From the NCBI GenBank assembly GCA_951406725.2, contig OX597821.1, positions 31,310,001-31,374,000 of the forward strand: a stretch of 64,000 bases of DNA. The letters run 5' to 3'. Shown here piece by piece: positions 1 to 62,728 of the stretch (its first letter is position 1; each line of letters opens with the position of its first letter). Under the pieces are notes generated by a model. It ran no database searches and had not been told where the DNA came from. It saw only the letters and a list, made by a program, of their open reading frames with translations. The DNA comes from Octopus vulgaris. Taxonomy: Eukaryota. Position numbers and translations under genes: made by a program.

Positions 1-230
1 TCACAGACGACAAATTTATCCATGGCTAATCACAACGAGGTGGGTCTCAATTCCTGCTTATTAGCATTACAGAGAGGGTGAATTAATCCTTTGTATAGAT
101 GCACATTTTCCAATGGTGTAGATGTAAATTTCCAGAGAAATGAAGAGGAATTTCATATTCACAGACGATAAATTTATCAATGGTTGAACACAATGAGGTA
201 GGTATCAATTCGTGCTATATGATTAGGTAT
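1..230. repeat. Diverged ~158-bp tandem repeat in PLE 3' UTR
   Basis: TCACAGACGA.AAATTTATC.ATGG at 1 and again at 159. Confidence 0.8.
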
Positions 231-1279
231 TTGCCACATTAATCACATTACTGCTATTTTCAAGAGACTGTAGCTATTTAACTTTTAAAGGCTGAAGGGC
301 TTTCTAGAGATGCAAAGAACAGAAAGGGAAGGAAAGAGAGGAAAAGAGAGAAAATAAAGGAGGAGGGAGCAAAAAAGGGGGGGACTAAAAGAGAAGAGAA
401 AAGGAAAAAGAAAAAAAGAAAAAAGAGAATAAGAAGAAGAAAAAGATAAAAGAGAAAAGAGAAAGAAAAGAAAAGAAAGAGGGAAAGAAGGGAGAAAAGA
501 AAAAGAAAAAGAGGGTTCTAGTTATACAGAAGAATTAGTAGACGGCAAGTCTGGTTTAAATTTGCATTTATCTAGGAACTAGAGGAGAATATTATTCCTT
601 GACCAGTAAAACAGCTAATTTGTTGCTGACGTGACGCCGTTGAAATCAGCTATGAATTTAAAGAGAATCTAAAGATATAACAAGGTCAGGGGTATAGGGG
701 TCAAAGGCTAAAATCAAAAGAAAATACATTAGGAAAATCTAAGTATAATCTTATCAAAAAGTCATTAAAATTTATTTATTTAATTTATTCGTTTTACTGT
801 CTTAAGGAGTTGCCGTTATTATTCATACATTGACGGACTACAGGTCAAATCTTAGAAGATCATTTACAAGGTGTTAGGGAATTGTCTATCATAATGAAGA
901 TATTCATACTATCATCGAGGGAGTAGCCTTATTTATTTAATTTTGAAATAGAATTATGAGGCTTTAGTAACTTATTTTATTTAATTAAAGTTATGTTACT
1001 TAAATTAGATTAAGTTAAGAATTAAAAATTAAAAATTATAATTCAGATTTAAAATCAAGATTTAAAATTATGAATTTGAAATTAAATATTTGAAATTAAA
1101 TAAAGCCTCAATTAAGCAGCGTATAAGTACTATTTATTTCCCTGTTCTCAAAAAACTGATGCAGATATAAGGAAAAAGATAACTGTAGTGTGAGAACTCT
1201 TAGTTATCTACTTAAAGCAGTGCTATACTAGTAAAAATCAAGTTATATCTATCTATCTATCTAGTTACGAATATTCTAA

Positions 1280-1892
1280 TCATTTAAAATATTTTAAAGT
1301 CTTCAATTTAGCGTGGACACAAACTTGACCTAGTTCTATATGGTTATTCAATAAGTTTCTATGTTTTCTATGCTTTAGAATTTCATACGTCTCCATGGAG
1401 CATAGTTGGCAACCAACCCTGCTATTTTTATACGGAATTGCTCTCCTAACTATTTCCCAATTAAGGTTATAATTATTGTTATTATTTTTGAGTTCCCAGA
1501 TTTTGTTTGAAAGTGTGGTGGTACCAGCTTTATGACGTAATTTAAAAGACGAGATGTGATTTCTAACTCTGGCTAGAAAATTAATTGTACATCCAATGTA
1601 AAAATATTTGTTATTCTCAGTGGATATGGTACATTTATAGATTACGTTATTTTCCCCGCATAGACCAGGTGCCGGGCATTTTGATTTTATTCTACACTTA
1701 CACACAGGAGGAACAACTACAGGTTTTGGATCATTCTTGGGTAGATGTCTTAGGTTCCTATTATTTTGATTATCATGAGTATAATTGTCCTTATTGTTAT
1801 TAATATTTTTATAGTTGGTGCTGATATCTAAAGTATTGCTATTATTTATTGATCCTTCTGTTTCATCTTTTAGGTCTAAAGTCCTACCATGA
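1280..1892 (-). CDS. GIY-YIG endonuclease with Cys-rich linker (C-terminal part of the same polyprotein, out of frame by one base)
   Basis: CKCRIKSKCPAPGLC, NVIYKC...YFYIGCT, F..R..NH..SF, WEI, CQLCSME, LLN...C.H. This frame is open from the T7 run at 1893-1899 down to the stop at 1280. Confidence 0.93.
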
Positions 1893-4154: not shown

Positions 4155-4262
4155 TCTTGTTGAGAAATTAAGTACCAGAAAAACATACAGACTGTATGGG
4201 AATATATTCAAAAAGCAATAAAGATTCAAGTCAATTTTAATGAATTTACTTGAATATGGTAC

Positions 4263-4787
4263 CTAATAAGCAGGAATTGAGACCCACCTCGTTGTGATTA
4301 GCCATGGATAAATTTGTCGTCTGTGAGTATGTAATCCCTCCTCATATCTCTGGAAATTCATATGTACACTATGGATTAGGTCACCTTCTCTGTGATGCTA
4401 TTAAAACTTTTTTAAAAATCTGTGATAAGACTGTACATCATCTTTAAAGAACTTTAATGAACTTTGGAAATCTGTTTATGTTACTTAATTATCTACATTA
4501 CTTCATGAGTATAGCCTCAACCACTAAGATGTCTAGAGAACTCACATGTATTTTAGCTGATGAGTACGGGACACGTTTATATGCTGCAATTTTTGCAACC
4601 TTTTAATAAAGCCTGTCTTTGTATGAAACGATTGTACTAAAAACTTATCCATTCTTGTTGCTTCTTTCTCGCTTATAATCACCCCACATTACTGTATTGT
4701 TAAAACCGTATAGTTTTTTGGTGCATCTAAGTTAGGTACCATATTCAAGTAAATTCATTAAAATTGACTTGAATCTTTATTGCTTTT

Positions 4788-4789
<2 letters not shown>
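4263..4789 (+). repeat. Inverted pseudo-LTR (5'-truncated 3' end of the PLE plus ~57-bp tail copied from the element's 5' leader)
   Basis: Two reverse-complement matches (to 1-64 and to 4209-4266); CTAA microhomology at the inversion junction. Confidence 0.9.
4551..4642 (+). ncRNA. Type I hammerhead ribozyme in pLTR
   Basis: Stem I TTTTAG/CTAAAA; CTGATGA; stem II GTACGGGACA...TGTCTTTGTAT; GAAA; minimal stem III C-GATT-G; GUA cleavage triplet at 4634-4636. Confidence 0.88.
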
Positions 4790-4826
<37 letters not shown>

Positions 4827-4829
<3 letters not shown>

Positions 4830-5409
4830 ACTATGGTTGCAGAACAAACAAATACAAGGTCATCCACGTAACATTTCATATCTCGAACATTTAATCAGGT
4901 AATGCTTTTTCTTTCACATAGAATATGCACGTATAACATCACGGAAGATGAAACATAACTCATCAGTACAAACCTATAAGAAAATGCAAGAAAATGTGTG
5001 AATACCGTTCATCACGGTTAAAAGTTAATACTTTAGCGATTAATAAATATATATATTTTTTGAAAAACATTACAACACCTAGAATAATAAATACGTAAAA
5101 ATATAAAGTAATATATAAATATATAGATATATAGAAAATATATAAAAAATACATATATATAGGAAGCATATAAATAAGTAATATATAATATATAAGGTAA
5201 GATAAAAGTCCATCGTTTAGAAATTTTTTTCATTAAAAATTACTTTTCAGATAAGGGAAACCTATAGTTAAAAGCCAGTGTCCAAGCAAAAAAGAAGAAA
5301 CCATATTTACATTCCCTATGGCCATTTCAGAGGTACATCACTGTATTTAATGCACGAGGGTGTATCACAATGATTACTCTTTCGTCAGGGGAAAAAATTG
5401 AGAGACAGA

Positions 5410-8379: not shown

Positions 8380-8655
8380 GGTGCTGGTGCATTTATCCAG
8401 CACGCGCACAAAAATACCTCATTTTGAAACACGATCTTGTCCCGTTTACAAATGCAGCAATGGCGGGGGGACACAGACACACAAACATATACACATACAT
8501 GTATACGACGGGCTGCTTTCAGTTTCTGTCTACCAAATCCACTCACAAGGCTTTGCTGGGCGCGAGGCTATAGTAGAAGACACTTGCCCTAGGTTCCGCG
8601 CAGTAGGAATGAACCCATCTGGTTGGTAAGCAACCTACTAACCACACAGCCACTT
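8380..8655 (-). mobile_element. SINE family A, 5' half
   Basis: TACGACGGGCTGCTTTCAGTTTCTGTCTACCAAATCCACTCACAAGGC...ACCACACAGCCAC. Confidence 0.85.
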
Positions 8656-8988
8656 CTGTAGTGAAGTTATTCTTAGTCAATAAAATTCAGATAATTTTAT
8701 AGGAAGTACAATGAAGTGAAGGCTGCCAAGATTACATCTTTCATAAATTCATATAAGTTAAGGTGTGTTCACTCATTTTCTATAATTAAAGGATTGATTG
8801 CTAGTCCAACTTAAAATTCTAACGGCATTTGGTATTATATATATACTCATACACATATATCATTGAATGCACCGATATTTATCTATACCTCTGTATATTA
8901 ATTTCCCGAGTATATATATCTGTGCATGTGGTGTACGTCTGTACATATGCACACAGATTTATGCAGTAGATACACAGACAAGTGAATA

Positions 8989-10994: not shown

Positions 10995-11930
10995 TTGTTG
11001 TGCAAGATTTTTTACGTGAAGTCGTGTGTTGAAACAGGTATTGTTATATTTCGGAATGGTTATTTTGCCAGGTTAGCCAATAAAAACACACGCATTATAT
11101 ATTTGGTGTTATGTTGCTTCAGTGTTATTTATTTTTTACATTAATCTTAATCTTATTTCGGCCAGAGTTCTTTCGTCACACTCCTGTGACCGTATCAGTG
11201 GTCCTTTGTTTTCTTCTTTGTTATTTGCGTCTCTACTTACTAACCGTCAGCCATGTTGCATTTCTATTGTATGTCTTCATTTGTACATGCTTATATCTCT
11301 ATGTGCGTCTATGTTTATTTTGTGTGGGGGGGGATGCCTGTAATACTTGTATCTTCTGTTTATATACGTTCGTGTAAACTGTTTTTGTTGTTGTTTTTGT
11401 TTATTCTTATTTTGTTCATGTGTTTACATTCACTTATTATTATTATCATTACGTATGCTTGTATGTATGTATGTATAACAACAATATAAGTAATAATAAT
11501 AATAAATCAAAAATATCTTTTAAATTAAACAAACAAAAAAACCTATATAGTTATTTATTTCTATTTGTTTATTGATCTGTGTGTTTTAATATGTTTTCGG
11601 TTTTGTTTATATTGCAGCCAGTTTATGGGGATCCTCTACCGTCATATATTGTGGTGTGTGGCAGTGCTCCATACCGGTTTCCTATTCAGGCTAGGTTTAT
11701 CTTCTATAAAATGGCTAACGGTTAGTACGAAGAGACACAAATAAGAATGAAGAAAACAAAGGACCACTGATGCGGTCACAGGAGTGTGACGAAAGAACTC
11801 TGGCCGAAATAAGATTAAGATTAATGTAAAAAATAAATAACACTGAAGCAAAATAACACCAAATATATAGTTCGTGTCTTTTTATTGGTTAAACTGGCAA
11901 AATGACCATTCCGAAATAGAACAATATTAA
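10995..11930. mobile_element. PLE remnant with ~215-bp inverted terminal repeats and a variant hammerhead motif
   Basis: 11038-11254 is a reverse-complement match of 11711-11926; flanked by (TA)n; FIEDKPSLNRK peptide (minus, ~11680-11712) resembles a PLE endonuclease end. Confidence 0.8.
11764..11803 (+). ncRNA. Minimal hammerhead-like motif with variant core (CUGAUGCG); second copy minus 11162-11201
   Basis: CCA CTGATGCG GTCACA GGAG TGTGAC GAAA GAAC TC TGG. Confidence 0.55.
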
Positions 11931-15700: not shown

Positions 15701-16883
15701 TAGAATTTCTTCTTAAATTTTATCATAATCTTTTATGTCTTTATAATGAGTCATAATTTACTTCACATTGTGAACATTTTTTCTTTTTAAGTTTATTTTT
15801 CTTTACAATAGAATTCTGATAATTTAGAAAAATTGGAGGATATTCCAGATTTGTGTCACCCATGTTGTTGACATATTATCTCGGTTTTTTTAATATTTTT
15901 TAATAATTTTCGTTGAGATGTTTTTAATATTATAAATAGTTTTAAAATTCACTTCATGCTGGCATCTATTTATTGTATAGGTATCATATGAAAAATAATG
16001 TTATATATGCCGTAGTTTATGAATGTCTAAACAGAAACATACGATAACTTATTGAATTTACTCATACGACTTTTTTATTGTTTAACATTCTGTTCATCAG
16101 ATGTCTTGCCTTCTTTTATCCTATATTCTATAAATGAGGCAATAATGACAAAGCAATACAAGAGATAGAAAAAAAACAGTACAGTTCACAGGATCATTTA
16201 CCTGAGCATTTTCTGAAGCATACTAAACCTGAAATATTCAAATATTAGGAAAACGTATTAAGCATCGACCTATAATATGTGTTATCACTTGGATTATTTT
16301 GGCCTTACAAAAGAAAAGAAACAATTAAAACCATTTATAAATCAGACAATACTACACAAAAACTATACTGAGGGTATATATAGCTTCATAAAATGGTATA
16401 TATGGAGGTCTGTGTCTTTCTGAGTCTGTCTACGTGTGCATATGTCCTTGCCTGCGTGTCTTAAATACTTTCTTTTCGTCGCTAAAATAGTCTAAACTGT
16501 ATTTCCTTTATTCCTTTCTGTGTATAATATTGATATTTACTTCATTAGATAATAGTGTGTACTTGCATTAAGTTTTCCATGGTGTTACACAACAAAATCA
16601 AGATTTCGTATAGAATTTTCTTTTCTATACTGATACAGATTTTCCCATATTATTCTAATGTTTCTATGGTATATACTGCATTGGAACATGGTAGCTTTCA
16701 CATATTGCTGAAATGCCGTCTGTTTTGTATACTGGGGCTAGTGCAGTTCCTGTCGTTGTTCACGAAATATTTCCTGTATGTTTCTGTATGTTCTTCAGCC
16801 AGTATTTTATTATGCCTTTACCGTATTAATGAGGTGGTTTATATGTACATTACAGCAGATGGTTTAATATTTAACAGATATTA

Positions 16884-17076
16884 AGGCGGCGAGTTGGCAG
16901 AAACATTTGCCCACCGGGCGAAATGATTAGTGGGATTTTGTCTGTCTTTACATTCTGAGATCAAATTTCACCAATGCTACTTTGCCTTTCATTCCTTCGG
17001 GGTCACTAAAATACGTACCACTTGCGTACTGGGGTATTCCTTCAAAATGTGCGGCCTTGTGCCCTGAACAGAAAAT
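16884..17076 (+). mobile_element. SINE family B with target-site duplication
   Basis: GGCGGCGAGTTGGCAGAAAC head; TTTGCCTTTCATTCCTTCGGGGTC; AATATTTAACAG on both flanks. Confidence 0.85.
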
Positions 17077-17944: not shown

Positions 17945-18245
17945 GGGGTCACCACCGCATCAGTGGTTCTTTGCTTTCTTATTTCTAATTTGTATGTCTC
18001 TCCTTACTAAGGGTCAGCTATTTTGTGTTTTGTATTTCTATTGTATGTGTCTTCATTTGCGCATGCGTATACCTCTACGTGTGTCTATGTTAGTTAGGAG
18101 TGTGAAGAAAGAACTCTGGCCGAAATAAGATTAAGATTAATGTAAAAAATAAACAACTCTGAAGCAAAGTAACAAACCATTCCTAAATACAACAATATAT
18201 GTTTCAACACATGATTTCACATCAAAAATCTTGCAAAACAAATAT
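17945..18245. mobile_element. Second, rearranged copy of the 11-kb PLE-derived family
   Basis: CCGCATCAGTGGTTCTTTG.. in one orientation, then GAAAGAACTCTGGCCGAAATAAGATTAAGATTAATG in the other; ends in (TA)n. Confidence 0.8.
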
Positions 18246-19869: not shown

Positions 19870-20208
19870 TGCAAGTTTTCATACTATATTTCCTGGTTAA
19901 AAAGAATCTTATGGTTCTGATTAGCTCGAATAAGAATTTGTGAAAACATCTGCAAATTTTCTCTTTAACAACATACGAAACTGCTCAGAAACTTTCTATT
20001 TGACGCATTCTAGCGATTTGGTGCGTTTAAGTCTTCACAGTTTACTGCACAATTAGCAATGCATTCTTGATGCTGTAATGCTGGAATTTTCAACCGAATA
20101 TACGTACAGAATCTGTTTCGTCTAGCCAAAATTTATGTATTTAAACTAGCAGAAACGTATTCTCTCAGTAGAAAATAGTCGTTGTCTTACACACACACAC
20201 ACACACAG

Positions 20209-20241
<33 letters not shown>

Positions 20242-20349
20242 TTATGATATGAGCATACAAATTATAATGAATGAGATTGATTTTGTAAAGGAAATTTTCC
20301 TTTCCATAATTATACAAAAGCATATAGCATGTCGCTAGCACGTCGGGCA

Positions 20350-21075
20350 GAATATCTAGTTTCATGCCGTCCATTTTTACGTTTCTGATCGCGATGAAGT
20401 CGTTGAAGGCATGTTTGATATCGTCTTGGTTTGTGAAGCATTTCTCACGCAGGAAGATGTCAAGACGCTTGAAAAAGAGGTAGACGGTAACCGAGAGTTC
20501 TGGTGAGTAATGCGGATGAGGCAGAGTTTCGTAGCGCAATTCGTTCAACTTCTGCAGGGTCAGTTGTGCGACGTGCGGCCGAGCGTTGTTCTGGAGAATT
20601 GGTATTTTCCTATTGACTAATGCTGTTGTTGTCGGAATCTTTATGCATTTCATACATTTGCTGACAGTAATTCGCCGCCGTAATGGTTTCGCCTGGTTCC
20701 AAATAGCTGGATGAGACCGGCTACAGACTACCAAACAGTCAGCATGTCCTTCTCTTGGTGCAACTTTGGATTCAGGAACTGCCGTGGGGCTTCGTCGGCA
20801 TCCAACCGCTGAGCTTAGCTTCGCCGGCTGTCGCAAAGAATTCACTTTTCATTGCAAGTCACAATCCGGTCGAGAGGCGGCTCGTTCTTTTTGCGTAAAA
20901 GAAGGGAAGACAACACTTCAAAACAGCGTTAATTTTAGTTGTCGTTCAATTCGTGCGGCACCCATTTCTCAAATACTTTTGTTTTTCCAATCTCTTTCAA
21001 GTGGTTAGAAAGTGGCGTAAACGCTACGTCTAATTGAGAAGCTAATTTTCGAAAAGTTGTGCGCGGATTAGCTTC
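20350..21075 (-). pseudogene. Mariner (DD34D) transposase remnant
   Basis: PILQNNARPHVAQLTLQKLNELRYETLPHPHYSPELSVTVYLFF matches HDNARPH...HPPYSPDL.P.D; frameshifted. Confidence 0.92.
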
Positions 21076-23118: not shown

Positions 23119-23282
23119 TTTTAGCAAATAAAATAATTTGCTAGGCGAAATTTCTCAATCGTGACCGCGCCATAATACTAACACGATGAGAGACAAGTGT
23201 TATTCGTCTCTGAATTGTGTTAGTGTTATGGCGCGGTCGCGAATGAGAAATTTCGCCTACCAAAATATTTTATTTGCTAAAA
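23119..23282. repeat. Long near-perfect palindrome (~75-bp arms), foldback/MITE-like
   Basis: TTTTAGCAAATAAAATA...GGCGAAATTTCTCA.TCGTGACCGCGCCATAATACTAACAC paired with its reverse complement; ~11-nt loop. Confidence 0.9.
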
Positions 23283-24727
23283 ACAGGACAGACAAGGAGA
23301 TTAAGTCGATTACATCGAACCCAGTGTGAAACTGGTACAAATCTACCACGCAAGCGCAGCTACAATCGGCGGCAAATAAAAGTTACGTGCCAGCGTACTT
23401 CAACTTTACGAAAAATTTTACTATCAAAATATTTATGGTAGAAAATTTGGAGAAATATTCTACCAGTAGTCAGAATGCGTAATAGAGTCCACAGACAACA
23501 TATTTTTCATATAAATTAGAGTACATTTCAATACTCAAAGGAGGTGACCATAACAGGACACCTTACATACTGAAAAGGGCTGTTAAAACACGAACCATAT
23601 ATATATATATATATCATAATAATAATAATAATATATATAATAATAATAATAATATTTAGGTGTTATACTACATGAAACGTACGCAGTCTTTTTAATTATT
23701 TTAATTATTATATATCGTTCATTTTTGTACTGTTTGTGATCTAGTTATTTGTTTAAAAATATATTTTATTTTTTATTTATGATTTGATTTATGTCTATCA
23801 TTGTTTGAATTACATAATAGTGTTTTTCTCTAATTTATATATATATATATATATATATATTACATATGTGTGTGTGTTTGTGTATGTGTGTGTATGTATG
23901 TATGTATATGCACGCATGCACTCATATACATGAGTGTACATATATATTTACTTGTGTTTAGTGTATTTTGGTGCGTATTTCTGCATTCATATAAGCAAAT
24001 CCGATGTACATCATAACACTTATAAGTAAAGTACTGTGGAAGACGTAACTATCTGCTATTTTTTCAAAATATCTATGAAAGTTTTCTTCCCTCCAGGGAA
24101 AACATGTCAAGAATTTAACGGAAGGAATCATGATTTCAATTTATTTCATATTATCACAACTTTTGCTATGCACAATTACAGTCACATCTCTCATAGTTTC
24201 CTACATTTTGTCTGCAATAATTGGAATATAAGACTAACTTTTAGTTTTGACAGGAATTACGTGTTACAGATACACTACATTATATGGTAATACATTTACA
24301 TTTAATGTAAATATATGCGTGTTTGTATGTGTGTGTTTGTGTGTGTATGTGAGAGACATGGCGTCTGTTTGCGTTTGTGTGTATGTCTCTATACCTGTAT
24401 GCATGCATGTGTGTGCGTGGGTGTGTGTGAAGTTCCATATCTTTGTGTTTGTAGGTCATTTACATTGTCCCAATGAGTAGCAAAAATGCAGAAAATTGAA
24501 GTATTTAGAATCGGAGGTTATATTTGCGCTTTATTATGATTAGTAGTAGGTATATAGTAGCTAGGTTCAGATCTCTATTCATAGTTAGCATAAAATAACA
24601 AAGCAAAAGTCAATCTAATGTTTTCGTACAGACGGGTGACTGTGAGTCTTGTTATACCTACTAGTGTGTATAGTCTCATTAATATAGCATTTGATATATG
24701 CTTGAGTTGAGTATCTATATAGTAGTT

Positions 24728-25939: not shown

Positions 25940-26775
25940 GAGACGAGACCAAATTGTAAGTACGCCACCATATTTTAAATATAAAAATATACAAAAATAG
26001 GACAAGATCGCAAAACATCCAGACTGTTAGGTGAAAAAAAAAAGGATAGCAAAATATACAGACATACGATACAAGGAAAAGAAGGACGGATCATTCGGAG
26101 TTTTCTATCCATATTCGAGTTCCAGATTTTCTCTGCAATTTCGGCTGGTTATACTCGAGATTGCTCCAATCTGGCCAGCCCCAGGAAACAAAAAGCAAAG
26201 AGCATTACATTCCTTGGGAACAAAAACGAAAATTGTTACACACATACAAATAACAGGGCATAACAACAGGTGTCTTTCGACTGAGTACGAATTACATTAA
26301 CCTGTCGTGCGTAGAAGTAAAGCCTTACGACAGGGACATAGGCTTTAAGAAGCACAGGAAGGAATATAAATGTTGCACGGACAGTAGTCCAACCAAGAAA
26401 TGTCTGGCCCGGCCAAACACCAGTCACGTGGGGAGAGAAGAGAAAGTAGTAGAGGGATAGAAGAATTAAGAAGGGACGACAGAAAAACGAATGAGACACG
26501 ATGAAGTGGAAGAGGAAAACTGAGCATGAAGAAAAGTCCTATTCTTTTATTCTTTCCCTCTTTCTATCAGCCCTTTCACATTCATTCTACTCTTCGTTCC
26601 TTCGTTCCCTTCTCTCACATTCCCTGGCCTTCTCTTCATGCTCACTTTCCCTCTTTCACTTCATTGTGTCTCTTTCACTTTTCCCCCGCCTCTTCTTAAT
26701 TCTTCTATTCCTCTACTTCTCTTGCTTCACTCCACATGTGACCGTTGTTTGGCCAGGCCTGACCTTTCTTTCTTG
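25940..26775. mobile_element. PLE-like non-coding remnant with internal inversion
   Basis: 26395-26537 is a diverged reverse complement of 26630-26770; TA-rich flanks; minus GGCTGG...CCAGCC GAAA stem resembling HHR stem II. Confidence 0.55.
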
Positions 26776-27125: not shown

Positions 27126-27639
27126 ACCAGTGTTTGGGCACAAGCGATCTTTAGGTGTAATAAGAAATGTGTGTGACATATTTCAACTGCTAAGGGCAAA
27201 TTCACTACAGATACCACGGAGAAGAAATACAACATATTTACCCAGTGCTATGCCATTATTGGACCCAAAGAAATCGTTTTAGCTGTTTAGCTGTTATCAA
27301 CTACATTATGAATAAAGACTGCTTCCCGCTGATACAGCTTAATATATTTTGCGTTGGCGGTCCCACGTCGCTTATAAGTCAATGTTCTTAAATTCCCTTT
27401 AGCTAAAGCAATGGCTTTAAAATCTGTTCTGTTTTACATTTCTACGATATTTCCCATTGCTCACGAGTAAGGAGATCGGAATGCGTTTGAGAAAACGAAG
27501 GGGGACACCACGGAGAAAATTATGCTGCTTTTACATTTTTTTTTTACCTTAAGACGATTTTTTTTTATTCATGGTAACTGCAGTGAATTTAACTTTAAAA
27601 ATTGAAGTAAGTCACAAACATACTTTAACTCACCAAAAA

Positions 27640-28155
27640 TTCATTTATGCCTACACAGATATGGAGAACATCTGGAAGAGTCGCGGCGTGTCAATAATGC
27701 TGAAAAACAAGGCTATTTCGCGCTGCCGCTTTTTCTATTGCGACGTACGGCTGCGAGTCGTGGACAATGTTGAAGGCAGACGAGAAAAGAGTGAGCGTTT
27801 TGAAATGTGGTGTTACCGCAGAATCCTTAGAGTGTCGTGGACAGAGAGAAGACAGGAACAACTGGACGAATAGCAAAGCTCGGTTGCGAGATGACGCTTC
27901 GGCGAAAAATCCTGAAGCGGAAGCTACGGTTCTTTGGCCACTTCATGCGCCGGGATGGACTTGGGCGAACCATCATAACTGGCAAGGTGAGCGGCAAACG
28001 TAAAAGAGGCAGACCACCCACGTCTTGGCTGAAAGACATCGCAACCACAGGATTGTCCTTATTCTCAGCTGTCGATGGGGTAGAGGACAGGGGAAGGTGC
28101 AAAGACATCGTGATGACCACAGCATCGCATAGTGCGACATCTGAATAGGATGATG

Positions 28156-30452: not shown

Positions 30453-31379
30453 ATATCTATTAAATACCAAGAATATGCCAGAATCGCCATTTCAATTACG
30501 TCCCATCTCTCATATATATTAACTTTCAAAATATCGAACTCAAATTCATAGTTAATGGAGCACACAAGTTTATTGATGGACGATTGACATGGATTGTCAT
30601 CATACCAAACGCTTCATAGCACATACGAGTGAAAGGTTCCTGCAATGTGATATTAATTCTGTGTACTGCAGTTTAATGCCTATACATGAAGCTGAGGTTT
30701 TTCTGAAGTATGGTACTTTCAAGGGAGTTGAAAGCAACATGCAAGAGAAAACCACGACAAAATAATCCATTGAAATGAAATATGTAGAAGGTTAAAATTG
30801 TTTACGTTATAATTATACTAACAAAAGGTCGAGTGTAAAATTTTCATTTGAAAGAGAAAGCAAAACAAGGAATGAGTTTGCATAAGTTAATTGGTACAGT
30901 AACCTTTAAAATATGACATAAGTGATAGCGATATGTGTCTGTGTATGTGTTTCTCTCTATATATAAACACATAAGTATACACACGTGGCCATCTATTAGG
31001 AATCTCAGACATCGAATTTTCGAATCTTTTTCTGTTACTCTTGTCATGGAGGTATACACAAGAGAGGTAACTGTAAACGAACTTAATAAAACTTCAGCTT
31101 AATATATAATTCAGTCAACGCGTCGTCTGATTTGAGCCCTCTTGGGTATATCTCATTGACAAGAGTCAAAAAACTTGAAACATCGATGTCTGAGATTCCT
31201 AACATATGGCGACACGGAACCAATTGGGTGTTTCAATGCCTTTTTAGCAAAAGAGATGTTATTTATCTACGGTAACCGCAGTGTATTTGCCTTTTAGGTT
31301 AGTAGAAATATGTTTGTCACCTATTTCAACTAACCTCATTTCTGCTCCTACCTAAACAGTGCTTTGCGCCAATGCTCCC

Positions 31380-33279: not shown

Positions 33280-33512
33280 GAGGCGGCGAGCTGGCAGAAA
33301 CGTTAGCACGCCGAGCGAAATGCGTAGCCGTATTTCGTCTGCCGTTACGTTCTGAGTTCAAATTCCGCCGAGGTCGACTTTGCCTTTCATCCTTTCGGGG
33401 TCGATAAATTAAGTACCAGTTACGCACTGGGGTCGATGTAATCTACTTAATCCGTTTGTCTGTCCTTGTTTGTCCCCTCTGTGTTTAACCCATTGTGGGT
33501 AGTAAAGAAATA
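33280..33512 (+). mobile_element. SINE family B (tRNA-like head, Meta-SINE-like core), young full-length
   Basis: GGCGGCGAGCTGGCAGAAACG, B box GAGTTCAAATTCC, GCCTTTCATCCTTTCGGGGTCGATAAA..AGTACC. Confidence 0.92.
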
Positions 33513-40400: not shown

Positions 40401-40591
40401 TTATATTCGAATACGTCACCTTGTTAGCCTGTTGCTTAGTTATATTCGAGTTGTTCCTAAATTAGTTACCTGCCATGTAATGAAGACGTTGATGAAAGGA
40501 ACAAGGAATTCAGTTAACTGCAGCAATATGCACGGTTGTGTGTAATGAAGAGTGAAAAAGTCCTTTCAGCTCCAGAAACATAACCTTCATA

Positions 40592-40819
40592 TACTCTTTT
40601 TACTCTCTTTTACTCTTTTACTTGTTTCAGTCATTTGACTGCGGCCATGCTGGAGCACCACCTTTAGTCGAGCAAATCGACCCCGGGACTTATTCTTTGT
40701 AAGCCCAGTACTTATTCTATCGGTCTCTTTTGCCGAACCGCTAAGTGACGGGGACGTAAACACACCAGCATCGGTTGTCAAGCAATGCTAAGGGGACAAA
40801 CACAGACACACAAACACAT

Positions 40820-40850
<31 letters not shown>

Positions 40851-41023
40851 CATATATACGACAGGCTTCTTTCAGTTTCCGTCTACCAAATCCACTCACA
40901 AGGCATTGGTCAACCCGGGGCTATAGCAGAAGACACATGCCCAAGATGCCACGCAGTGGAACTGAACCCGGAACCATGTGGTTGGTTAGCAAGCTACTTA
41001 CCACACAGCCACTCCTGCGCCTA
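40592..41023 (-). mobile_element. SINE family A, full-length young copy
   Basis: Head GGCGCAGGAGTGGCTGTGTGGTAAG...GGTTCAGTTCC; internal microsatellite; tail GGTGCTCCAGCATGGCCGCAGTCAAATGACTGAAACAAG(TAAAAGAG)n. Confidence 0.93.
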
Positions 41024-41716
41024 TGTATATTATTTTAATAAGTGATTTAAAAATAAAGCTACAACGTTTCAATGAAGTGCATAAATAGTATAAAAAACGA
41101 GGCGGTAGCTGTACATAAGAGATGTAAATAGTAAGAGATAAGAAAGGACAATATTTACACTATTAGCCTAAGTGAAGTATTTTCATGTAACTAAATTGGA
41201 ACAGTGACAAATGTGTCCATGCTTATAGAACAATAACACTAATACACATTCATAAACGCATTCACATACACAAAGATATATTGAGGTTTAGACGATATAC
41301 AAATAGGTGATGTCCATGAACATACTGGTTATATATCTTAGCTGATTATTGTTTCAGTTATTCAAGTTAAATTAGCCATAAACATGCATTTCTCATACAA
41401 AATGCCTCATACAAAATGAGTCTATATCCTTAGTATTCAAATATCATCATCGGCACGACAAATGTGGTGTTGATTACGAAACAGTGACCATGAGTATGTA
41501 ATTACAAGTAGGACATAAGAAGATTATTTTAAGTACATGTACCTCACTTTCGAACAATTCTGGGTTCCTGTCATTATATTCCTCGTCCTATAGTACTAAT
41601 TCCAGTTGCCATTTCGTAATTGAAATGCATTGTCAAGGGAGGTTGTAAGGTATACCAGCTCTTCGTTTCTCTCTCCCCGTGATTTTCCATACATACATAC
41701 ATAAATATATATATAT

Positions 41717-41762: not shown

Positions 41763-41916
41763 AATAAATATAAGAGAGTGTTCACTATATTGATCACTCT
41801 AGCACCAGTTAATCCAAGAGGTTTCAACCACGAAAAATACATGTTTCCCATGAAAGCCGGTACGACTGTTAGCTCACACGGACAGGGCAAATAAAAAATA
41901 ACAAAATACAGATTAT

Positions 41917-41994
41917 CTTGGGACAATTGTTTCGCTATTAATGAATTAAATGTAATATTATTTACAGTAATCCATTTGTAGCTCTTCAGCCAAG
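41917..41994 (-). ncRNA. Type I hammerhead ribozyme, copy 1
   Basis: CTTGG CTGAAGA GCTA...TAGC GAAA C-AATT-G TC CCAAG. Confidence 0.93.
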
Positions 41995-42451
41995 GCTATC
42001 TTGATGAAATCCACTCAATCACACGCCAGATTTTACCATAACGATAATTACGCGTGCGGTTCAATTGATTACATCGGACGTTATAATTCAAATGCCCCAA
42101 CCAACAGCGCGCCAAACTCTCACGGAAAACAAAATACAGCATTTAGAAATAAATGCAGCATAATTATAATTAATTAATAAGGGTGAGAGAATTAGATACT
42201 AATTTAATAGTATATTTATTCCACACCAAGTGGCCTAGTGCTACGAGAAACCTGGATTATTATAATATTTTATAACATATTATAATATTTTCACAAAATA
42301 AATATAAGAGAGTGTTCACTATATTGATCACTCTAGCACCAGTTAATCCAAGAGGTTTCAACCACGAAAAATACATGTTTCCCATGAAAGCCGGTACGAC
42401 TGTTAGCTCACACGGACAGGGCAAATAAAAAATAACAAAAATACAGATTAT

Positions 42452-42529
42452 CTTGGGACAATTGTTTCGCTATTAATGAATTAAATGTAATATTACTTAC
42501 AGTAATCCATTTGTAGCTCTTCAGCCAAG
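42452..42529 (-). ncRNA. Type I hammerhead ribozyme, copy 2
   Basis: Same motif, 535 bp from copy 1. Confidence 0.93.
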
Positions 42530-42941
42530 GCTATCTTGATGAAATCCACTCAATCACACGCCAGATTTTACCATAACGATAATTACGCGTGCGGTTCAAT
42601 TGATTACATCGGACGTTATAATTCAAATGCCCCAACCAACAGCGCGCCAAACTCTCACGGAAAACAAAATACAGCATTTAGAAATAAATGCAGCATAATT
42701 ATAATTAATTAATAAGGGTGAGAGAATTAGATACTAATTTAATAGTATATTTATTCCACTAATTAATTATAATTATGCTGCATTTATTTCTAAATGCTGT
42801 ATTTTGTTTTCCGTGAGAGTTTGGCGCGCTGTTGGTTGGGGCATTTGAATTATAACGTCCGATGTAATCAATTGAACCGCACGCGTAATTATCGTTATGG
42901 TAAAATCTGGCGTGTGATTGAGTGGATTTCATCAAGATAGC

Positions 42942-43019
42942 CTTGGCTGAAGAGCTACAAATGGATTACTGTAAGTAATATTACATTTAATTCATTAATA
43001 GCGAAACAATTGTCCCAAG
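42942..43019 (+). ncRNA. Type I hammerhead ribozyme, copy 3 (inverted)
   Basis: CTTGG CTGAAGA GCTA...TAGC GAAA CAATTG TC CCAAG; GUC at 43012-43014. Confidence 0.93.
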
Positions 43020-43360
43020 ATAATCTGTATTTTTGTTATTTTTTATTTGCCCTGTCCGTGTGAGCTAACAGTCGTACCGGCTTTCATGGGAAACATGTAT
43101 TTTTCGTGGTTGAAACCTCTTGGATTAACTGGTGCTAGAGTGATCAATATAGTGAACACTCTCTTATATTTATTTTGTGAAAATATTATAATATGTTATA
43201 AAATATTATAATAATCCAGGTTTCTCGTAGCACTAGGCCACTTGGTGTGGAATAAATATACTATTAAATTAGTATCTAATTCTCTCACCCTTATTAATTA
43301 ATTATATATATATATGTATACGTATATATACACTATATGTATATTGTATATATATAAAGC

Positions 43361-43394
<34 letters not shown>

Positions 43395-43420
43395 TATATA
43401 TACACATACATGGACGTGCC

Positions 43421-43479
<59 letters not shown>

Positions 43480-43483
<4 letters not shown>

Positions 43484-43914
43484 ATATTAGGGAATAAATC
43501 CAAATTTACAGGGAAAAAATCAGATTTAGGATTAAATCCAATTTTATAGTAAAATATTATAAAATATTATTAGAGACAAAACCACTATTTTGCAAAACAA
43601 ACAAGGAAAGACTTAATCAATACATAAAATTTTAATAAATAGTCAATACACATTCATAAACGCATTCACATACACAAAGATATATTGAGGTTTAGACGAT
43701 ATACAAATAGGTGATGTCCATGAACATACTGGTTATATATCTTAGCTGATTATTGTTTCAGTTATTCAAGTTAAATTAGCCATAAACATGCATTTCTCAT
43801 ACAAAATGCCTCATACAAATGTGTATTGACTATTTATTAAAATTTTATGTATTGATTAAGTCTTTCCTTGTTTGTTTTGCAAAATAGTGGTTTTGTCTCT
43901 AATAATATTTTATA
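43480..43914. mobile_element. Inverted-repeat element in (TA)n enclosing a captured local segment
   Basis: 95-bp perfect IR 43558-43652 / 43820-43914; 43645-43819 identical to 41241-41415. Confidence 0.9.
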
Positions 43915-43932
43915 TATATATATATATATATA

Positions 43933-44163
43933 CTTTATTTAAAAGCAGCAGAAAATTCAACAAAACCTGTTAGTCTAGCACGTCGGACAGATTCTGTTAC
44001 GTCGGACAGATTCTAGTAAAAACTGTCCGACAAACAGGAACGTGAAACTCAGAGTAACAGGTTTTGTTGAATTTTCTGCTGCTTTTAAATAAAGCATATT
44101 ACTCTACCACTGGTATTTGAGTACTCTTTTTTCCACCTTGTTTCACATTTATGTGTTTACTCC

Positions 44164-44166
<3 letters not shown>
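43933..44166 (+). mobile_element. Short PLE-type terminal fragment with 40-bp IR and decayed HHR (44023-44060)
   Basis: IR 43933-43972 / 44055-44094; CTGT CCGACAA ACAGGAACGT GAAA CTCAGAG TA ACAG. Confidence 0.65.
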
Positions 44167-47087: not shown

Positions 47088-47837
47088 CATGTATGTATCA
47101 GAAAATGAGATGAGAAGGGAACCGGTGACTATCTTACTAACTTAATGAGCTCTCAGCTGTTTTTGGTATAATATATAGCGAAATCATAGTTAAGTGTCTA
47201 AGTAACACTTTGTAGCTTCATCACAGCCGCGTCGAATATGATGAAATCATGACCAATAAGCTTTCGTGAAGCAACATGATGTTGCATATTACAGAAGAAC
47301 GGGCTTGGAGTTTATGAAGTTAATAACATAATCGTTTATTCATTTGTGATCTTCTCCTATTGCACTCTATACTTGACTAACACTGCGTTCTGAGCTGAAA
47401 GTATATAGAATGTTATTTGTTCTGCAATTTCTTAGCAATGTAAATAATATAATATACTATAATATATAATGTAACTATTTTACGGGCAGGTAATGCTTTT
47501 AGACAAAGTGTTTTGTTTATCGCACTCCTGTTATTGTAGGAATAGAGACGAACAAAAAGAAAATTGTTTTCAGCATTGCATATTAAATCACTTTTTAGCA
47601 AATAGTATTAATAAAAATACAAGTAGGCTCACAATGCACACAAAAAAATGGAACACTAAACAGGAAAATCAAATGTCTTCATGAAAAATTAATATATTAA
47701 ACGACTAGCATCAAAACTATCCACAATCAAGAGAAAATATTATATTTTATTTGAAAAATATCTGTTGCATAGCATGAAAGTATGCATCATCACACAAAGT
47801 GCTGCACTGAAAGCTTCTTTTATTTCTAATAATTATA

Positions 47838-48247
47838 TACTCTTTACTCTCTCTTTTACTCTTTTACTTGTTTCAGTCATTTGACTGCGGCCATGCTGGA
47901 GCACCGCCTTTAATCGAGCAACTCGACCCCGGGTCTTATTCTTTGTAAGCCCAGTACTTATTCTATCGGTTTACTTTGCTGACCCGCTAAGTGACGGGAC
48001 ATAAACACACCAGCATCGGTTGTCAAGCAATGCTAAGGGGACAAACACAAACACACACGCACACATATATATATGCATATATACGACGGGCTTCTTTCAG
48101 TTTCCGTCTACCAAATCCACTCACAAGGCTTTGGTCGGCCCGAGGCTATAGCAGAAGTCACTTGCCCAAGGTGCCACGCAATGGGACTGAACCCGGAACC
48201 ATGTGGCTGGTATACAAGCTATTTACCACACAGTCACTCCTGTGTGC
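47838..48247 (-). mobile_element. SINE family A, full-length
   Basis: High similarity to 40592-41023. Confidence 0.93.
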
Positions 48248-48654
48248 AAATTTATAAATTTTGTTTCCAAAACAACACTGTTTCATTGCACCAACTAAAG
48301 AAATCAACAGTATACTTTGGTAGACTCTGATATATTCCTTGCTCGGTGACTGAACGAAAATGGACACCATCATCCATTTCGTCAAACTAAAATCTAAAGA
48401 CAATCGCTACACCTGATCTATATACTTCAATCTCTCATGTCCCAAATCGCAGGAAACAGATGACGTGAATTTAATTATAGCGTAATGTCACTTAACTCTC
48501 ATTTCATCAACGTATTTGTAAAGGGTGTGAGATCAAATATAACTGGTCTCTAAATTCCGAACATGATGATTTTATCGTGGTAGAATATGCATAACAAAAT
48601 CCCTTCATCAATTTGGTGACACCATTCAACACTGGTATAATATATAATATATTT

Positions 48655-48887
48655 AAGGCGGTGAGCTGGCAGAAACGTTAGCACGCCGGGCGAAATGCTA
48701 AGCGGTATTTCGTCTGCCGTTACGTTCTGAGTTCAAATCCCGCCGAGGTTGACATTGCCTTTCATCCTTGCAGGGTCGATTAAATAAGTACCAGTTACGC
48801 ACTGGGGTCGATGTAATCGACTTAATCCGTTTGTCTGTTCTTGTTTGTCCCCTCTGTGTTTAGCCCCTTGTGGGTAGTAAAGAAATA
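48655..48887 (+). mobile_element. SINE family B, full-length
   Basis: Near-identical to 33280-33512; GGTATAATATAT on both flanks. Confidence 0.93.
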
Positions 48888-49334
48888 GGTATAATATATC
48901 CTGCCTTTAGCAAATACTTCCACAAGGTTAGCAAAATTATGGGATTCATGCCATACATTCAAACCCAATAAAAGTAAAGATTGATGCTGTAAATGAGAAA
49001 TAAATTCATCTGCGGTAATTTGAACAAGAGAAATTGTTCAAAAAGCATACTCTCATCTTTCAGCAGAACCATTCATGGTATCCAACAATACGATTGATTT
49101 AAGAATAATCGTTGATAACCAGCTGCAGCGCTCACATCAATTATACAGTTGATATGGATTACAAATGAGTCATGGATCATCATGTATTCCCGGTTCAGAG
49201 CCACATATCATGATTTTCCGTTTTATACTTTGTTCTGTCATACATAGAGTCCTACTAACCGCTGTGGTTCCAAATGATATTCACATCAAGTTTACGTTTC
49301 CCTGAAGGACGGGACTAATGCATATAAATATATA

Positions 49335-52994: not shown

Positions 52995-53450
52995 GTGGCT
53001 ATGAAGTCCTATCCTGGACAAACACTCCCTCTGGCAGGTGCCGCAAATGTAGCGAAGACTGTTCCTGGCTGGTTGTAATATCATAGTTTCTGTCACTCCT
53101 TTGTATTCCCTCTTTTACGGTACGTCGCCAATCTCCACGATTGCTGGCAGCTGATTCCCAGTTGCTAATATTGATGTTGTAGGCCTTCATGTCACTTTTG
53201 CAAACATCCTTGTAATGTAAGAACAGTCTTCCCACAGACCTAGTGCCCCTAGCAAGGTCTCCGTAGATTATGTCCTTGGGGATTCTGCCATCTTTCATAC
53301 GGCTAACATCTCCTACGTCTTTGTGTGAGTAGTGCAAATATGCTTGGTATTCCTGCTTGCTTCAGGACATCTTTGTCAGGGACATGGTTCTGCCATTTGA
53401 TGCGAAGGATTTTCCGGGGGCAGCGCAGGGGAAAGATGTTTAGGCGACTT
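52995..53450 (-). mobile_element. RTE/BovB-like LINE fragment
   Basis: RMKDGRIPKDIIYGDLARGTRSVGR...YKDVCKSDMK...WE..A.NR..WR..VK.G. Confidence 0.9.
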
Positions 53451-54506: not shown

Positions 54507-56008
54507 TATCAAGTAGTGATACGACCGTTTCAAGGGGCTCCAGTTAATTGAACGATACAATCATTAGGTCAATTAAAATTTAGTGCCATCATCGACTGAA
54601 CAAACAAATAAATAGAATTTTAACCCGTATAAATTCTATTCGGTCTGAACACCTCTAACCTCCCTCACTACATCCATACCTACTACTTCCCCTTTTCGGA
54701 TTAACTCTATCTCTTCCCTACCTTAATTTTTAATCCCCTGCCGCTTTAAATGTTGGTTTACATGTATTTCTTATTGTTTTCTATATATTCTTATTATCTT
54801 TTCTTATTTTGATATCCTCATCTATTAACCTCTTATCCATTATATGTATTTATTGTTCTTAACTACAATTTTTTCCAGCTACTTCAGTCTATGCGAGATG
54901 GTTATACTATATCCATATAAAATTATAAATATTTGTGTATGTTTATATATATGCATATACGCGCATAACCTATTAATCTCTTATCCCTTTTAAATTATTT
55001 TTTCTTCTTCGTAAATGGCTACTTTTCAGTTACTTAAGATAGTTATTCTATATCCTTATAAAATATGAATATTTGTGTATGTCTATGTATGCATGTGTGC
55101 ACATATATAAGTATGTGTGTGTATCTGTACATACCTTTATTTTCTCTAATTCATGGCATATAATTAATCTATAAATAGCATGTTTATCTTTGCAGTATTC
55201 CATAAGTAAATGTCTCTGAGCAGTCTTTCTGGAAATCACCTAATAAGTAATTAATTAAGTATATAAATGAATATTAAATTGATTCTATGTAATATTTCCT
55301 TTTTAATATTTATATTTGATATATACATACATTTTATATATTTTGCTTATATCATGCTTGACAATCTTAAATTAATTTTTATACAACGTACAATATTGTT
55401 TATAAACACTCACCCATAGTCCCCTACGATAAAATTTTCTCTGTATTAACATCCTAGGTTTTATTAGCGTCTTGTCCCTTTAACTGGTAATTAACATTAT
55501 GATTTAGAGTTCTTCCCTACCCATCCTCCTTTTATAGACAGTTACCCTATATCCGGTTGACTATTTTTCTAACGTTTTCTTTCCTACCTGAGGAAAAGGG
55601 ATACGTATGACAATATTTCTGACCATACCTAGCCATGAGCTATCAACTCTCTCTTGCCCTTTATTTTAAACATACACATTCTTCTAGTCTTAGGTTTAGT
55701 AGGTGATAAAGAGATAATTAAATTTGAAATGAATCACAATCCTTTACAAGCTATGACCCCAATGGGCTTCATGGGATTCTTGGAAGTGTTGTCTATTCTT
55801 AGCTACAATCGCAAAAGCATGATTTCCTTCCATCTTCTTGATCTTTTAAAGTATTTGAGGAAACTTATATTAATGTGTCCCACTGGTTAAAATTTTATTT
55901 ACTTATTTTTGCAGCTGATGATAACACCGCATTTAAATCGACGTAATGATTGCATTGTTCAATTAAATCGTCACGCTTGAAACGGTCGTACTGCATCACT
56001 ACTTGATA
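54507..56008. mobile_element. Old PLE-like remnant with inverted pLTRs, each with an HHR-like motif
   Basis: 54507-54626 is a diverged reverse complement of 55884-56008; strand-skewed AT-rich interior. Confidence 0.7.
55910..55995 (+). ncRNA. Hammerhead ribozyme, partly decayed (base of stem II unpaired)
   Basis: TGCAG CTGATGA ... GAAA C-GGTC-G TA CTGCA. Confidence 0.65.
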
Positions 56009-56430
56009 GATTGTTGCGTATTTTGATTTTATTCAATGGATTGACTTGGTTTTTCAACTTAAGTCCCTAATTCAACTGAATCTCAGTAATAAATGAATAT
56101 ATGTGCGTGTGTGTGTGTGCGCGCGTGCGTGTGTGTGTATTTGAATGGATTGACATGAACTAGAATAATCATTAGTCAGGATTTACATAGTGTTTCGTGC
56201 AAATAAGCACCACATCCACGAGTAAGTGCGGTTTGGGTTCTCTATCACATCATCTTCATATGACCTTATACACGCTCAAAAATCTGACAGGAAACATCAG
56301 AAATCGGAAAATATAATTCTGAAATGAGAAGTATTGAGGATGGCAATGATGACATAGATGATGAGACAACGACGACGACGTCAATGGTAATGAAAAAGAT
56401 GAATCCAAATATAACATGGTTGTCCCATTT

Positions 56431-59699: not shown

Positions 59700-61381
59700 T
59701 ATTTTTCTATCCCTCAAGACTTATTCGACATCACCAGAGTCCACGCTGAATGGCTCAATGTTGTTGTGAATAGCTGTACCCCATCCACTTTGCAAGGGCA
59801 AAATGGGCTATTCCATACGTTAAGCAGCAACTAAGCAGACTCCACATCCTTCCAAGAGAAGAAGATGCCCTGATGGTGAAACTTCACGCTCTTTATCAAA
59901 ACCAGCTCCCCTGGGTACTGACAGAGACACATTTGGAGAAGAGATTGAGGAGTATAATTATGGTGAAGATGACGAACTTGATAAAAATGATAGTGATAAT
60001 GATGGTACTTATTCTTCCACAAGAAAGCACAACTAATCTGCGACTGGTATGAGACTTGTAACTGGAACAAACATCTCTACCAACAAAGCTGCGAAAATTT
60101 GCAAACAGTTCTCAGAGGAGAGCATTGATATCTAACTCCTTGTCAGAAACTAGTCAGCTGGTAATTTACAAGACACTCTTCAAGAAAGCTGTGTAATGAA
60201 GTGACTCTTGATCGATACGCTACACAATCGGAAATGGAGCCTGCATTTACATGATAATCATATTGACGGAAATGAATATCAAGCGCTAGTCATCAAGAAT
60301 GAAACAGGTGAAGCCAAACTGGCTGCTTTGAAGCTGTATAATGGTAAGACTGAGACCATTGCAGAAGGAATGAAAAGCGTATTGGACGAATTTCATTTGC
60401 GCAGCGCAATCTCAAAGATTATTGCTATTACGATGAGTTTGAATACAGGAGGAAAGAATGGGGTAGTGGTTAACCAGCAGAGAAGGTTCTTGGGATATAA
60501 CAAGCCACAATTCGTGAGCTGCTAATGTCGTGTCTTGGACAGAATCCTGCGCGTTGTTGTGGTTGAGGAGCTAGTAAACAGAAGCAACTTACCCCCAATA
60601 TCGAATAATCTTTTGTGAAAGAACTCATTTCAAATTAAGACCTCCACGGCTCTTGACAGGATGGAACTCATGGCATTGAATATCAAGCTGGCTGGAGAGA
60701 TGATAGGAAGTTGTTTCTGTTCCACTTAACCCGTGCCTCCAGGTTCTTCCATGAAAACGGAGACCTATCTTTCATCAGGTTTCAGAAAATTCCGAACATG
60801 AGTAATGCGAGATAGAGTGCGCGAACAATCTCAGACCTTCTTGCATTTTTCTTTATGCCACTTGTGAGAAGAAGATTCCACCTTGTCTGCCAATTCCTCT
60901 CATATGACTGGGTGAAGCTCTGATTCAGTGACCAAATATATAGATCTGAAGATTATGCAGAGCTATTGCAAGTCTTACTACCCTACACGACTGCTTTGAC
61001 ATGTTTGACAAATCACAGAAAACAAGAGCGAACAATTAGGGTCATGCAAAAAATACACGCCACATGCAAGAACAAAGCTAACATGCCATTCTCTCTAATG
61101 AATTGCCGCAACTTGACTATGGACTTCCTACGACATAAATTCTTTATATTGTTATGGAATGCAGAATACAGTTCTTTTTAACAGTTATGGATTAAACGTT
61201 TTGGATCTTTTTCCTATTTTTTTGTTTATTATTCAATCAGGGTTCTAGTTTTTGGAAATTCACCCAAATGCAAACGAGTATAAAAATATCGAAATCAGTT
61301 ATTGATTTTGATTGTTTTCTAGCAAAAGCTCATCAGAATATGGTACAGGAGTATGGAGTTGTAAAAATGTCGTATCCCTAA
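59700..61381 (+). pseudogene. DNA transposase remnant, hAT (hATm)-like
   Basis: WSLH, KLAALKL.NGK.ETIA, (DTT)..NTG.KNGVV, PQFVSC*CRVLDRILR (CxxH region); many stops; right end ...ATCCCTAA. Confidence 0.6.
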
Positions 61382-61689: not shown

Positions 61690-61895
61690 TATTCTTTTCT
61701 ACTCTAGGCACAAGGCCCGAATTTGGGGGGACGAAGCCAGTCGATTAAATCGACCCCAGTGCGTAACTGGTACTTGTTTAATCGACCCCGAAAGGATAAA
61801 AGGCAAAGTCGACCTCAGCGGAATTTGAACTCAGAACGTAGCGGCAGACGAAATACCGCTAAGCATTTCGCCCGACGTGCTAACGATTCTGCCAG
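61690..61895 (-). mobile_element. SINE family B
   Basis: Reverse complement of family B head and core, with an alternative tail. Confidence 0.9.
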
Positions 61896-62312
61896 ATTAC
61901 AATATAATCGATAACCTGTTGAAATGTTATGCGCTTTATACCTCAGAAGGAATAAGAACCACACTAGATCTTGTCCGAAATAGAAATCAGAGATCAGCGG
62001 TAGGTCTCTGTTGATAAAAAGAAGAGTGGTAAACATAATTTCATGGTATATACCTTATATTGCAGTAAACCACATTGATCACTCAAGTTATAGCGTCAAC
62101 AGGGATAGAATAAACTACAAATATCAACTGATGACACTTAAACAAACCATCTTAAATAAGGAAGAAACATATTTTAAAACAAATATGACATGCTTCCGTG
62201 TAAGAAATCCTGGGATCAGCGCTCGTGCGAAAGTGTTTGAGTGGCACTGGAAAATGACAATTACAATTATTTTACCATTACGAAGCGCGTTTTCATTATA
62301 GAATATGTTTAA

Positions 62313-62728
62313 GGTGGCGAGCTGGTAGCAATATTAGCCCATCGGGCGAAATACTTAGCGGTATTTCGCCTGCCGCTACGTTCTGAGTTCAAATTCCGCC
62401 GAGGTCGACTTTGCCTTTCATCATTTCGGGGTCGATTAAATAAGTACCAGTTACGCACTGGGGTCGATATAATCGGCTTAATACGTCTGTCTGTCCTTGT
62501 CTGTCGTCTCAGTGTTTAGCCCCATGTGGGTAGTAAAGAAATAGTTATTTCATCTTCCACTACGTTCTGAATTCAAATTCCACCGCGGTTGACTTTGCGT
62601 TTCATCCTTTCGGGATCGACTAAATAACTACCAGTTACGCACTGGAGTCGATGTAATCTACTTAATACTTTTCTCTGTCCTTGTTTATCCCTTTTATGTT
62701 TATTGCCCTTGTGGGCAATAAAGAAATG
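62313..62728 (+). mobile_element. SINE family B dimer (full-length plus 5'-truncated) within one TSD
   Basis: Units 62313-62543 and 62559-62728; AGAATATGTTTAA at 62300-62312 and 62729-62741. Confidence 0.9.

Follow-up and report, generated by a model that had tools for sequence, protein, structure and literature searches.

A base-exact copy of neighbouring DNA between unequal inverted arms of a probable PLE insertion in Octopus vulgaris

Introduction

Hydra-type Penelope-like elements (PLEs), among them Hydra-1_Obim of Octopus bimaculoides, form a clade for which the motifs RWK, DKT, CxCX5C, CxxC and CxH are given; almost all of its families insert in (TA)n, and its members carry an inverted, 5′-truncated copy, a hammerhead in the 3′ region and, optionally, a tail at one end, described as 30–40 bp (PMC8557442, 2021). 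The formation of PLE tandem and inverted structures is named as unexplained by Craig et al. (PMC8557442), and in the one in vitro PLE study what follows first-strand synthesis is left without validation (PMC11167929). PLEs account for 6.83% of O. vulgaris (PMC13282606).

Captures of foreign DNA by retroelements have been described in several systems. In rotifer Penelope elements, unrelated sequence lies between pLTRs, and template jumps and self-priming were proposed to explain it; these spacers measure 0.9–1.5 kb or hold a whole gene, are enclosed by direct pLTRs, in some cases with TSDs, and have no identified adjacent donor in the available text (Arkhipova et al. 2013, PMC3846280). At the snap-back 5′ junctions of R2, the 3′ end of the cDNA primes, before it is joined, on the strand to which it belongs or on target DNA close by, as seen for single snap-backs in human cells with an engineered R2 (Zhang et al. 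2024, PMC11371274). Complex L1 insertions in somatic cell clones contain genomic pieces, attributed to template switching or to joined RT products, and have poly-A and a TSD without a head-to-head pLTR layout (PMC11702581). Pol theta likewise copies DNA flanking a break, primed by minimal pairing, in templated insertions that are generally <25 bp (PMC12426944).

Here we describe an insertion in a stretch of 64,000 nucleotides of O. vulgaris DNA (64 kb, contig OX597821.1; hereafter the window) that encloses a copy of DNA from next door. The event is of a known kind, related captures having been published for R2, L1 and rotifer PLEs; what differs is an adjacent donor that is matched base for base. 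Compared with the Hydra-type elements described, the arms of this insertion lack both hammerhead and ORF (the hammerhead is found in its neighbours and, in part, in a relative), its tail is 77 nt long instead of 30–40 bp, and its spacer is local host DNA. The process that we propose combines a jump with a subsequent fold-back, in contrast to the single snap-backs of R2, and the copied segment measures 175 bp and comes from at least 0.5 kb away, in contrast to Pol theta insertions. Our search, made mostly in open-access literature, listed no publication on a PLE with an identified adjacent donor and fold-back.

Results

A segment of neighbouring DNA is copied into the insertion

Positions 41241–41415 and 43645–43819 of the window are identical at 175 of 175 nucleotides, in the same orientation and at an offset of 2404, and the match extends no further on either side; the identity and the distance of ~2.4 kb reported in the initial annotation are thereby confirmed. 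Given the base composition, a 175-nt match has a chance of ~1e-99 per site. The donor sequence has two copies in the 64-kb window and no third. After masking, the window contains 16 exact direct runs of at least 30 nt, and this pair alone lies outside simple repeats, a neighbouring tandem unit and a dispersed multi-copy family, presumably SINEs. The upstream copy is probably the original, because a 14-bp tandem unit is complete there and interrupted in the downstream copy (Table 1).

The interval between donor and insertion measures 2065 bp, of which 1549 bp belong to another young PLE-type insertion (41763–43311) and just 273 bp are non-repeat DNA. At the time of the event the donor would thus have lain 0.5–2.2 kb upstream, and ~0.5 kb if the intervening insertion came later. 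With a calibration of 0.0036 per site per My, derived from octopus data in PMC13282606, the absence of differences in 175 nt permits up to 1.7% divergence, or ~2.4 My, so that the event, first described as very recent, is bounded by its identity at less than ~2.4 My. For the intervening insertion, zero differences in 552 nt (with an exact run of 547) allow 0.5% divergence; these bounds suit either order of the two insertions.

Pfam searches for a host gene able to supply minus-strand RNA across the donor matched none of 74 ORFs chosen from 116, a search that short exons would escape. In a set of 12 ORFs, one matched, namely to GIY-YIG, and none represented a host exon.

The arms are unequal and share their inner end

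The insertion spans 43481–43914 and is flanked by (TA)n on both sides, in keeping with its first description as an element inserted into a microsatellite. It is asymmetric, with a left arm of 174 nt and a right arm of 97 nt that lies wholly within the left one, and the inner end of both arms is the same base. The inverted repeat (43558–43654 and 43818–43914) is perfect, as had been claimed, and is 97 nt rather than 95 nt long. It overlaps the copied segment by 10 nt on the left, where 8 bp had been given, and by 2 nt on the right (43818–43819). The right-junction homology, initially called AAATG-type, is exact over these 2 nt and reaches 4 nt only if one A was lost from a run of four; at the left junction, microhomology amounts to 0–10 nt depending on the family consensus. 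Beyond the inverted repeat the left arm continues for 77 nt, up to (TA)n, with sequence that is absent from the right arm. The right arm stops at the first TATA along the arm, where a diverged relative with 79% identity stops too. The window contains no N.

Table 1. Coordinates of the insertion, its donor and associated features in the window
Position	Strand	Feature	Remarks
1280–4262	-	Coding region of a Hydra-clade PLE, with RT in one frame and GIY-YIG in another	No match to the arms
23674–23835	+	Relative of the arm, diverged and running into (TA)n	Hammerhead-like motif at 23674, second half, with one mismatch
41241–41415	+	Donor, non-coding DNA copied into the insertion	175/175 identity with 43645–43819
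41392–41418	+	14-bp tandem duplication	Runs 3 nt past the donor end; incomplete in the copy
41763–43311	.	Intervening insertion: 534-bp hammerhead-bearing unit, present ~1.9 times in tandem and again as an exact inverted copy of 547 bp	
43303–43480	.	(TA)n array, at first degenerate and then pure	Left target flank
43481–43557	-	77-nt extension of the left arm only	3′ end resembling a PLE tail, joined to (TA)n
43558–43654	-	Perfect 97-nt inverted repeat, left arm	Probable distal 3′ part of a Hydra-type pLTR
43645–43654	.	10 nt common to arm and donor	Either genuine microhomology or donor bases that a fold-back copied
43645–43819	+	Templated copy of the donor	Unpaired loop 43655–43817, 163 nt
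43818–43914	+	Right arm, nested wholly in the left	Overlaps the copy by 2 nt
43915–43932	.	(TA)n	Right target flank
43933–44165	+	Adjacent insertion with mirror layout, having an inverted arm of 40 nt, a Hydra-type hammerhead (second half), a tail of 71 nt and a patchwork junction	Motif compared by eye with a table in PMC8557442

The insertion is probably a non-autonomous PLE

Judged from its sequence, 43481–43914 is probably a non-autonomous PLE insertion, likely of the Hydra clade. Membership is probable because of four features: the layout between (TA)n arrays, a relative of 79% identity that ends at the same site, neighbours that carry hammerheads, and a Hydra-clade PLE in the same window. 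On these grounds the retroelement origin and the PLE terminus that the initial annotation had predicted are upheld as probable. Each arm is probably a distal 3′ piece of a pLTR, the two being placed head to head with their 3′ ends outward and with a tail on one side, the polarity being taken from the relative. That relative aligns with the arm at 23776–23834 (79% identity, E 1e-7) and runs into (TA)n at 23835, and its hammerhead-like half lies ~80 nt upstream of the aligning part. The pattern used for this half has 6 matches in the window, three others of which are ribozyme halves, at 4625, 54429 and 55979. The tail of 77 nt compares with tails of 71 and 44 nt in neighbouring insertions.

The element at 1280–4262 suggests by its motifs that the Hydra clade is present in the window, since it carries all five of RWK, DKT, the CxCX5C linker, CxxC with CxH, and GIY-YIG at the C-terminus, the last with a Pfam E of 0.004, under the curated cut-off. 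The closest named relatives of its RT region (2700–4154) are from Octopus sinensis, with 87% identity over 34% of the query and 69% over 42%. In this PLE (1–4826), a long asparagine-rich stretch separates RT and endonuclease, which use different frames, and an inverted pLTR with a hammerhead (4557–4636) reaches (TA)n at 4790. N-rich inserts are known from rotifer PLEs (PMC3846280).

The arms themselves carry neither an ORF nor a hammerhead, and gave no significant match to the PLE at 1–4826. A hand-made descriptor found no hammerhead ribozyme in 43481–43914, and no hammerhead appeared among the 150 Rfam matches listed of 204, those listed being miRNA models that all fell under gathering scores. 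A 45-aa open antisense frame of the arm had no protein match of similar or greater length, a 33-aa frame spanning the right junction had one, to an unrelated repetitive protein, and the sense frame across the left junction is interrupted by stops. Three arm motifs had no hits in the available supplement of PMC8557442, nor were arm motifs found in the available parts of the Craig and Bonar supplements, where line breaks can mask a motif; six arm motifs did not occur in the literature text searched, and arm patterns had no hits in a prokaryote genome collection. None of these searches brought a second close copy of the arm to light.

MITEs and Pack-type DNA elements also hold host DNA between inverted repeats. 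We rejected such an origin, and the description as Pack-MITE-like with it, on account of the unequal arms (174 vs 97 nt) and the outward 3′ ends, as in PLEs; moreover, the whole unit has one copy in 64 kb and gives no sign of having moved. The insertion is probably a one-off, and sterile.

A single growing strand as the preferred mechanism

In our estimate the chances are about even that the insertion was made by one growing strand, reverse-transcribed from the left (TA)n, diverted onto neighbouring DNA, folded back and joined to the right (TA)n. To give the observed layout from 43481 to ~43645, the enzyme would have cut (TA)n and the RNA's 3′ end would have been reverse-transcribed from the left flank. 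The end of the cDNA would next have switched to the bottom strand of the donor, or to its minus-strand transcript, copying the 175 nt that are now present. The new 3′ end may then have folded back on its own strand, held by exact pairing of 2 nt and by loose pairing between the two ends of the donor, and from within the first 10 donor bases 97 nt would have been copied back. Joining to the right (TA)n would have followed at the first TATA encountered, where the arm is seen to end. Under such a fold-back, most of the apparent 10-nt microhomology would be donor sequence duplicated by the return copying. As a speculation, read-through RNA could have served as template, since the minus-strand arm of the neighbouring insertion (41763–42759) faces the donor.

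Fold-back would explain the nested right arm, the equal inner ends and the 10-nt overlap with one positional coincidence and no sequence coincidence. R2, whose cDNA ends prime on themselves or on target DNA close by, offers a precedent (PMC11371274). Copying could have run only from left to right, because the tail is on the left arm alone: the left arm could have served as template for the right, and not the reverse. A start of synthesis at the right end was therefore rejected; fold-back cannot make the tail, and a chance 10-mer would be needed in the copying path. Of 34 possible sites, the proposed landing site comes third by two crude pairing scores (a post hoc comparison, with ~1 in 10 expected by chance), a rank helped by pairing inside the donor segment, which fold-back alone could use; with the natural end of the donor as primer, it ranks 3 and 6 of 25. 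Octopus copies of the arm's family may continue differently at the junction of arm and donor. The jump and the return of the strand onto its own complement, as first envisaged, thus survive as the best model; the role first given to microhomology in the jump is only a possibility, because the 10 nt may equally be donor bases copied by fold-back.

Several observations tell against this one-strand model. The landing site is not top-ranked. The inverted arm of the full-length PLE (4263–4789) does not lie within what is visible of its partner arm. Furthermore, resection of the left end would destroy the bottom strand of the donor, so that strand invasion or an RNA template must be assumed.

Alternative explanations

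The alternative to which we grant the most, though we hold it to be unlikely, is that both cut ends were extended separately on element RNA, from the tail site on the left and an inner site on the right, up to the same stop position in the RNA; the left cDNA would then have copied the donor as filler through a 10-nt microhomology and been joined to the right cDNA by 2 nt. In vitro, a PLE protein cleaves both strands of its target, extends them, and begins at two neighbouring RNA sites to produce the tail (PMC11167929), which supports two separate cDNAs against a single strand, and joining of two RT products has been inferred for L1 (PMC11702581). The outer end of the right arm equals the end of the 79% relative, which agrees equally with independent priming there and with a TATA met by chance. 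Genuine microhomology of 10 nt can be had, though not often, 12 of the 155 10-mers of the arm being matched exactly within 2.5 kb. Such a history nevertheless calls for two coincidences, in that the inner ends are equal and 10 nt match (4e-6 per site), where fold-back needs one. Nor would the ribozyme readily supply the common stop: in the relative its site lies ~70–80 nt upstream of where the arm stops, so a ribozyme-cut RNA end is probably not the cause of the equal ends, and a stop point so defined was rejected. The local alignment of the relative also ends before the 10 nt, although the relative is too diverged for this to be a real test. Distinctly improbable, in our view, is a later origin, in which a perfect or near-perfect palindrome broke at its centre and host repair copied the donor through the 10-nt microhomology, the capture being separate from retrotransposition. 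Palindromes undergo revision by breakage at the centre, and the equal inner ends would be directly accounted for; palindromes at inverted PLE junctions are also reported to be abundant (PMC3846280). Yet all other head-to-head elements aligned in the window retain a spacer, the 10-nt match is still required, and 175 nt is long for Pol theta filler. Indeed, Pol theta-type repair, which the initial annotation had admitted as one route, fits poorly when taken alone, such insertions being generally <25 bp; of its proposal of a local templated capture, the part that stands is the capture itself, with the upstream DNA as its likely donor (175/175, with the 14-bp unit complete upstream).

We consider it very improbable that nothing was captured and that the 175 bp are a repeat or part of an element, the upstream copy being a second insertion. 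About 66% of O. vulgaris consists of repeats (PMC13282606), and our copy number is that of the window; against this, there are two copies only in 64 kb, the 14-bp tandem unit is complete in the upstream copy and incomplete in the other, the upstream copy has neither flanking (TA)n nor arm sequence, and the sequence at the upstream position in the relative is not the donor. We give even less credence to a library or assembly artefact, whether a fold-back chimera or a template switch during amplification. In favour of an artefact are the perfect identity and the perfect inverted repeats, with long (TA)n to either side, and PLE structures are said to trouble assemblies (PMC8557442); but the window is free of N, the untailed arm ends at the end site of a diverged relative, and older elements of 77–93% identity share the layout.

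What the captured segment may reveal

A foreign segment marks the order of synthesis: if donor bases are present in the inverted arm, that arm was copied from a chimeric strand. That the right arm does contain the reverse complement of donor-derived bases we hold to have a somewhat less than even chance. If it does, these bases would be direct fossil proof that the inverted terminal copy of a PLE came from DNA-templated fold-back of one chimeric strand, and a second reverse transcription would not be its source. Insertions tagged locally in this way across the octopus genome would then be natural labels for the origin of PLE tandem and inverted repeats, and might bring out a route used regularly by PLEs to copy the DNA beside them, possibly via read-through RNA of an adjacent element. 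A single locus is an anecdote, and this one shows no sign of function or further movement.

Neighbouring PLE-type elements

The insertions at 41763, 43933 and 10995 have one arm nested in the other, as does 43481–43914, an arrangement that speaks for fold-back. In the first of these (41763–43311), three intact Hydra-type hammerheads lie at 41989 (-), 42524 (-) and 42947 (+), the inverted copy is arranged around a 48-nt loop, and both ends adjoin (TA)n. Two sites distinguish its outer unit from the inner one, to which the inverted copy is equal; that copy comprises one unit plus 13–18 nt, as though the RNA template had been circular or tandem. The 534-bp unit, which we take to be retrozyme-like, had no Pfam match in the frames tested. 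In 43933–44165, the short arm ends within 2 nt of the predicted hammerhead cut site, and the junction (43973–44022) is a patchwork in which 16 nt of the element are duplicated directly and 9 nt are copied in inverted orientation. This junction looks templated on a small scale, and fits Pol theta better than the 175-bp copy does.

The element at 10995–11926 has 219-nt arms, a 44-nt tail and a head-to-head layout. It belongs, with 18038–18241, 23119–23282, 26395–26770, 30985–31378 and 54507–56097, to a set of older head-to-head inverted elements or pieces of them, whose arms are ~77–93% alike; several adjoin (TA)n and two have hammerhead halves. The initial annotation had suggested that other spacers be surveyed for nearby sequence: in tests for exact matches of at least 10–15 nt, none of 6 other spacers matched unique DNA of the window beyond 16 nt. 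By self-BLAST alone, the 1.25-kb spacer at 54629–55881 contains internal repeats. Further hammerhead-like motifs, full or half, are found at 5317–5388 (-), 38371 (+), 52088 (+), 54429 (+) and 56196 (-), with a hand-made descriptor used without a chance control, so that some may be false.

Other repeats in the window

Four frames, at 20165–20848 (-), 27553–28145 (+), 52999–53361 (-) and 60205–60525 (+), resemble by eye decayed mariner-type transposase, LINE and other transposon proteins; they had no Pfam match. Two dispersed families of short repeats, presumably octopus SINEs, are represented at 40589–41017, 47835–48243, 8506–8659, 16878–17035, 33281–33509, 48653–48892 and 61739–62727, with copies 73–94% alike.
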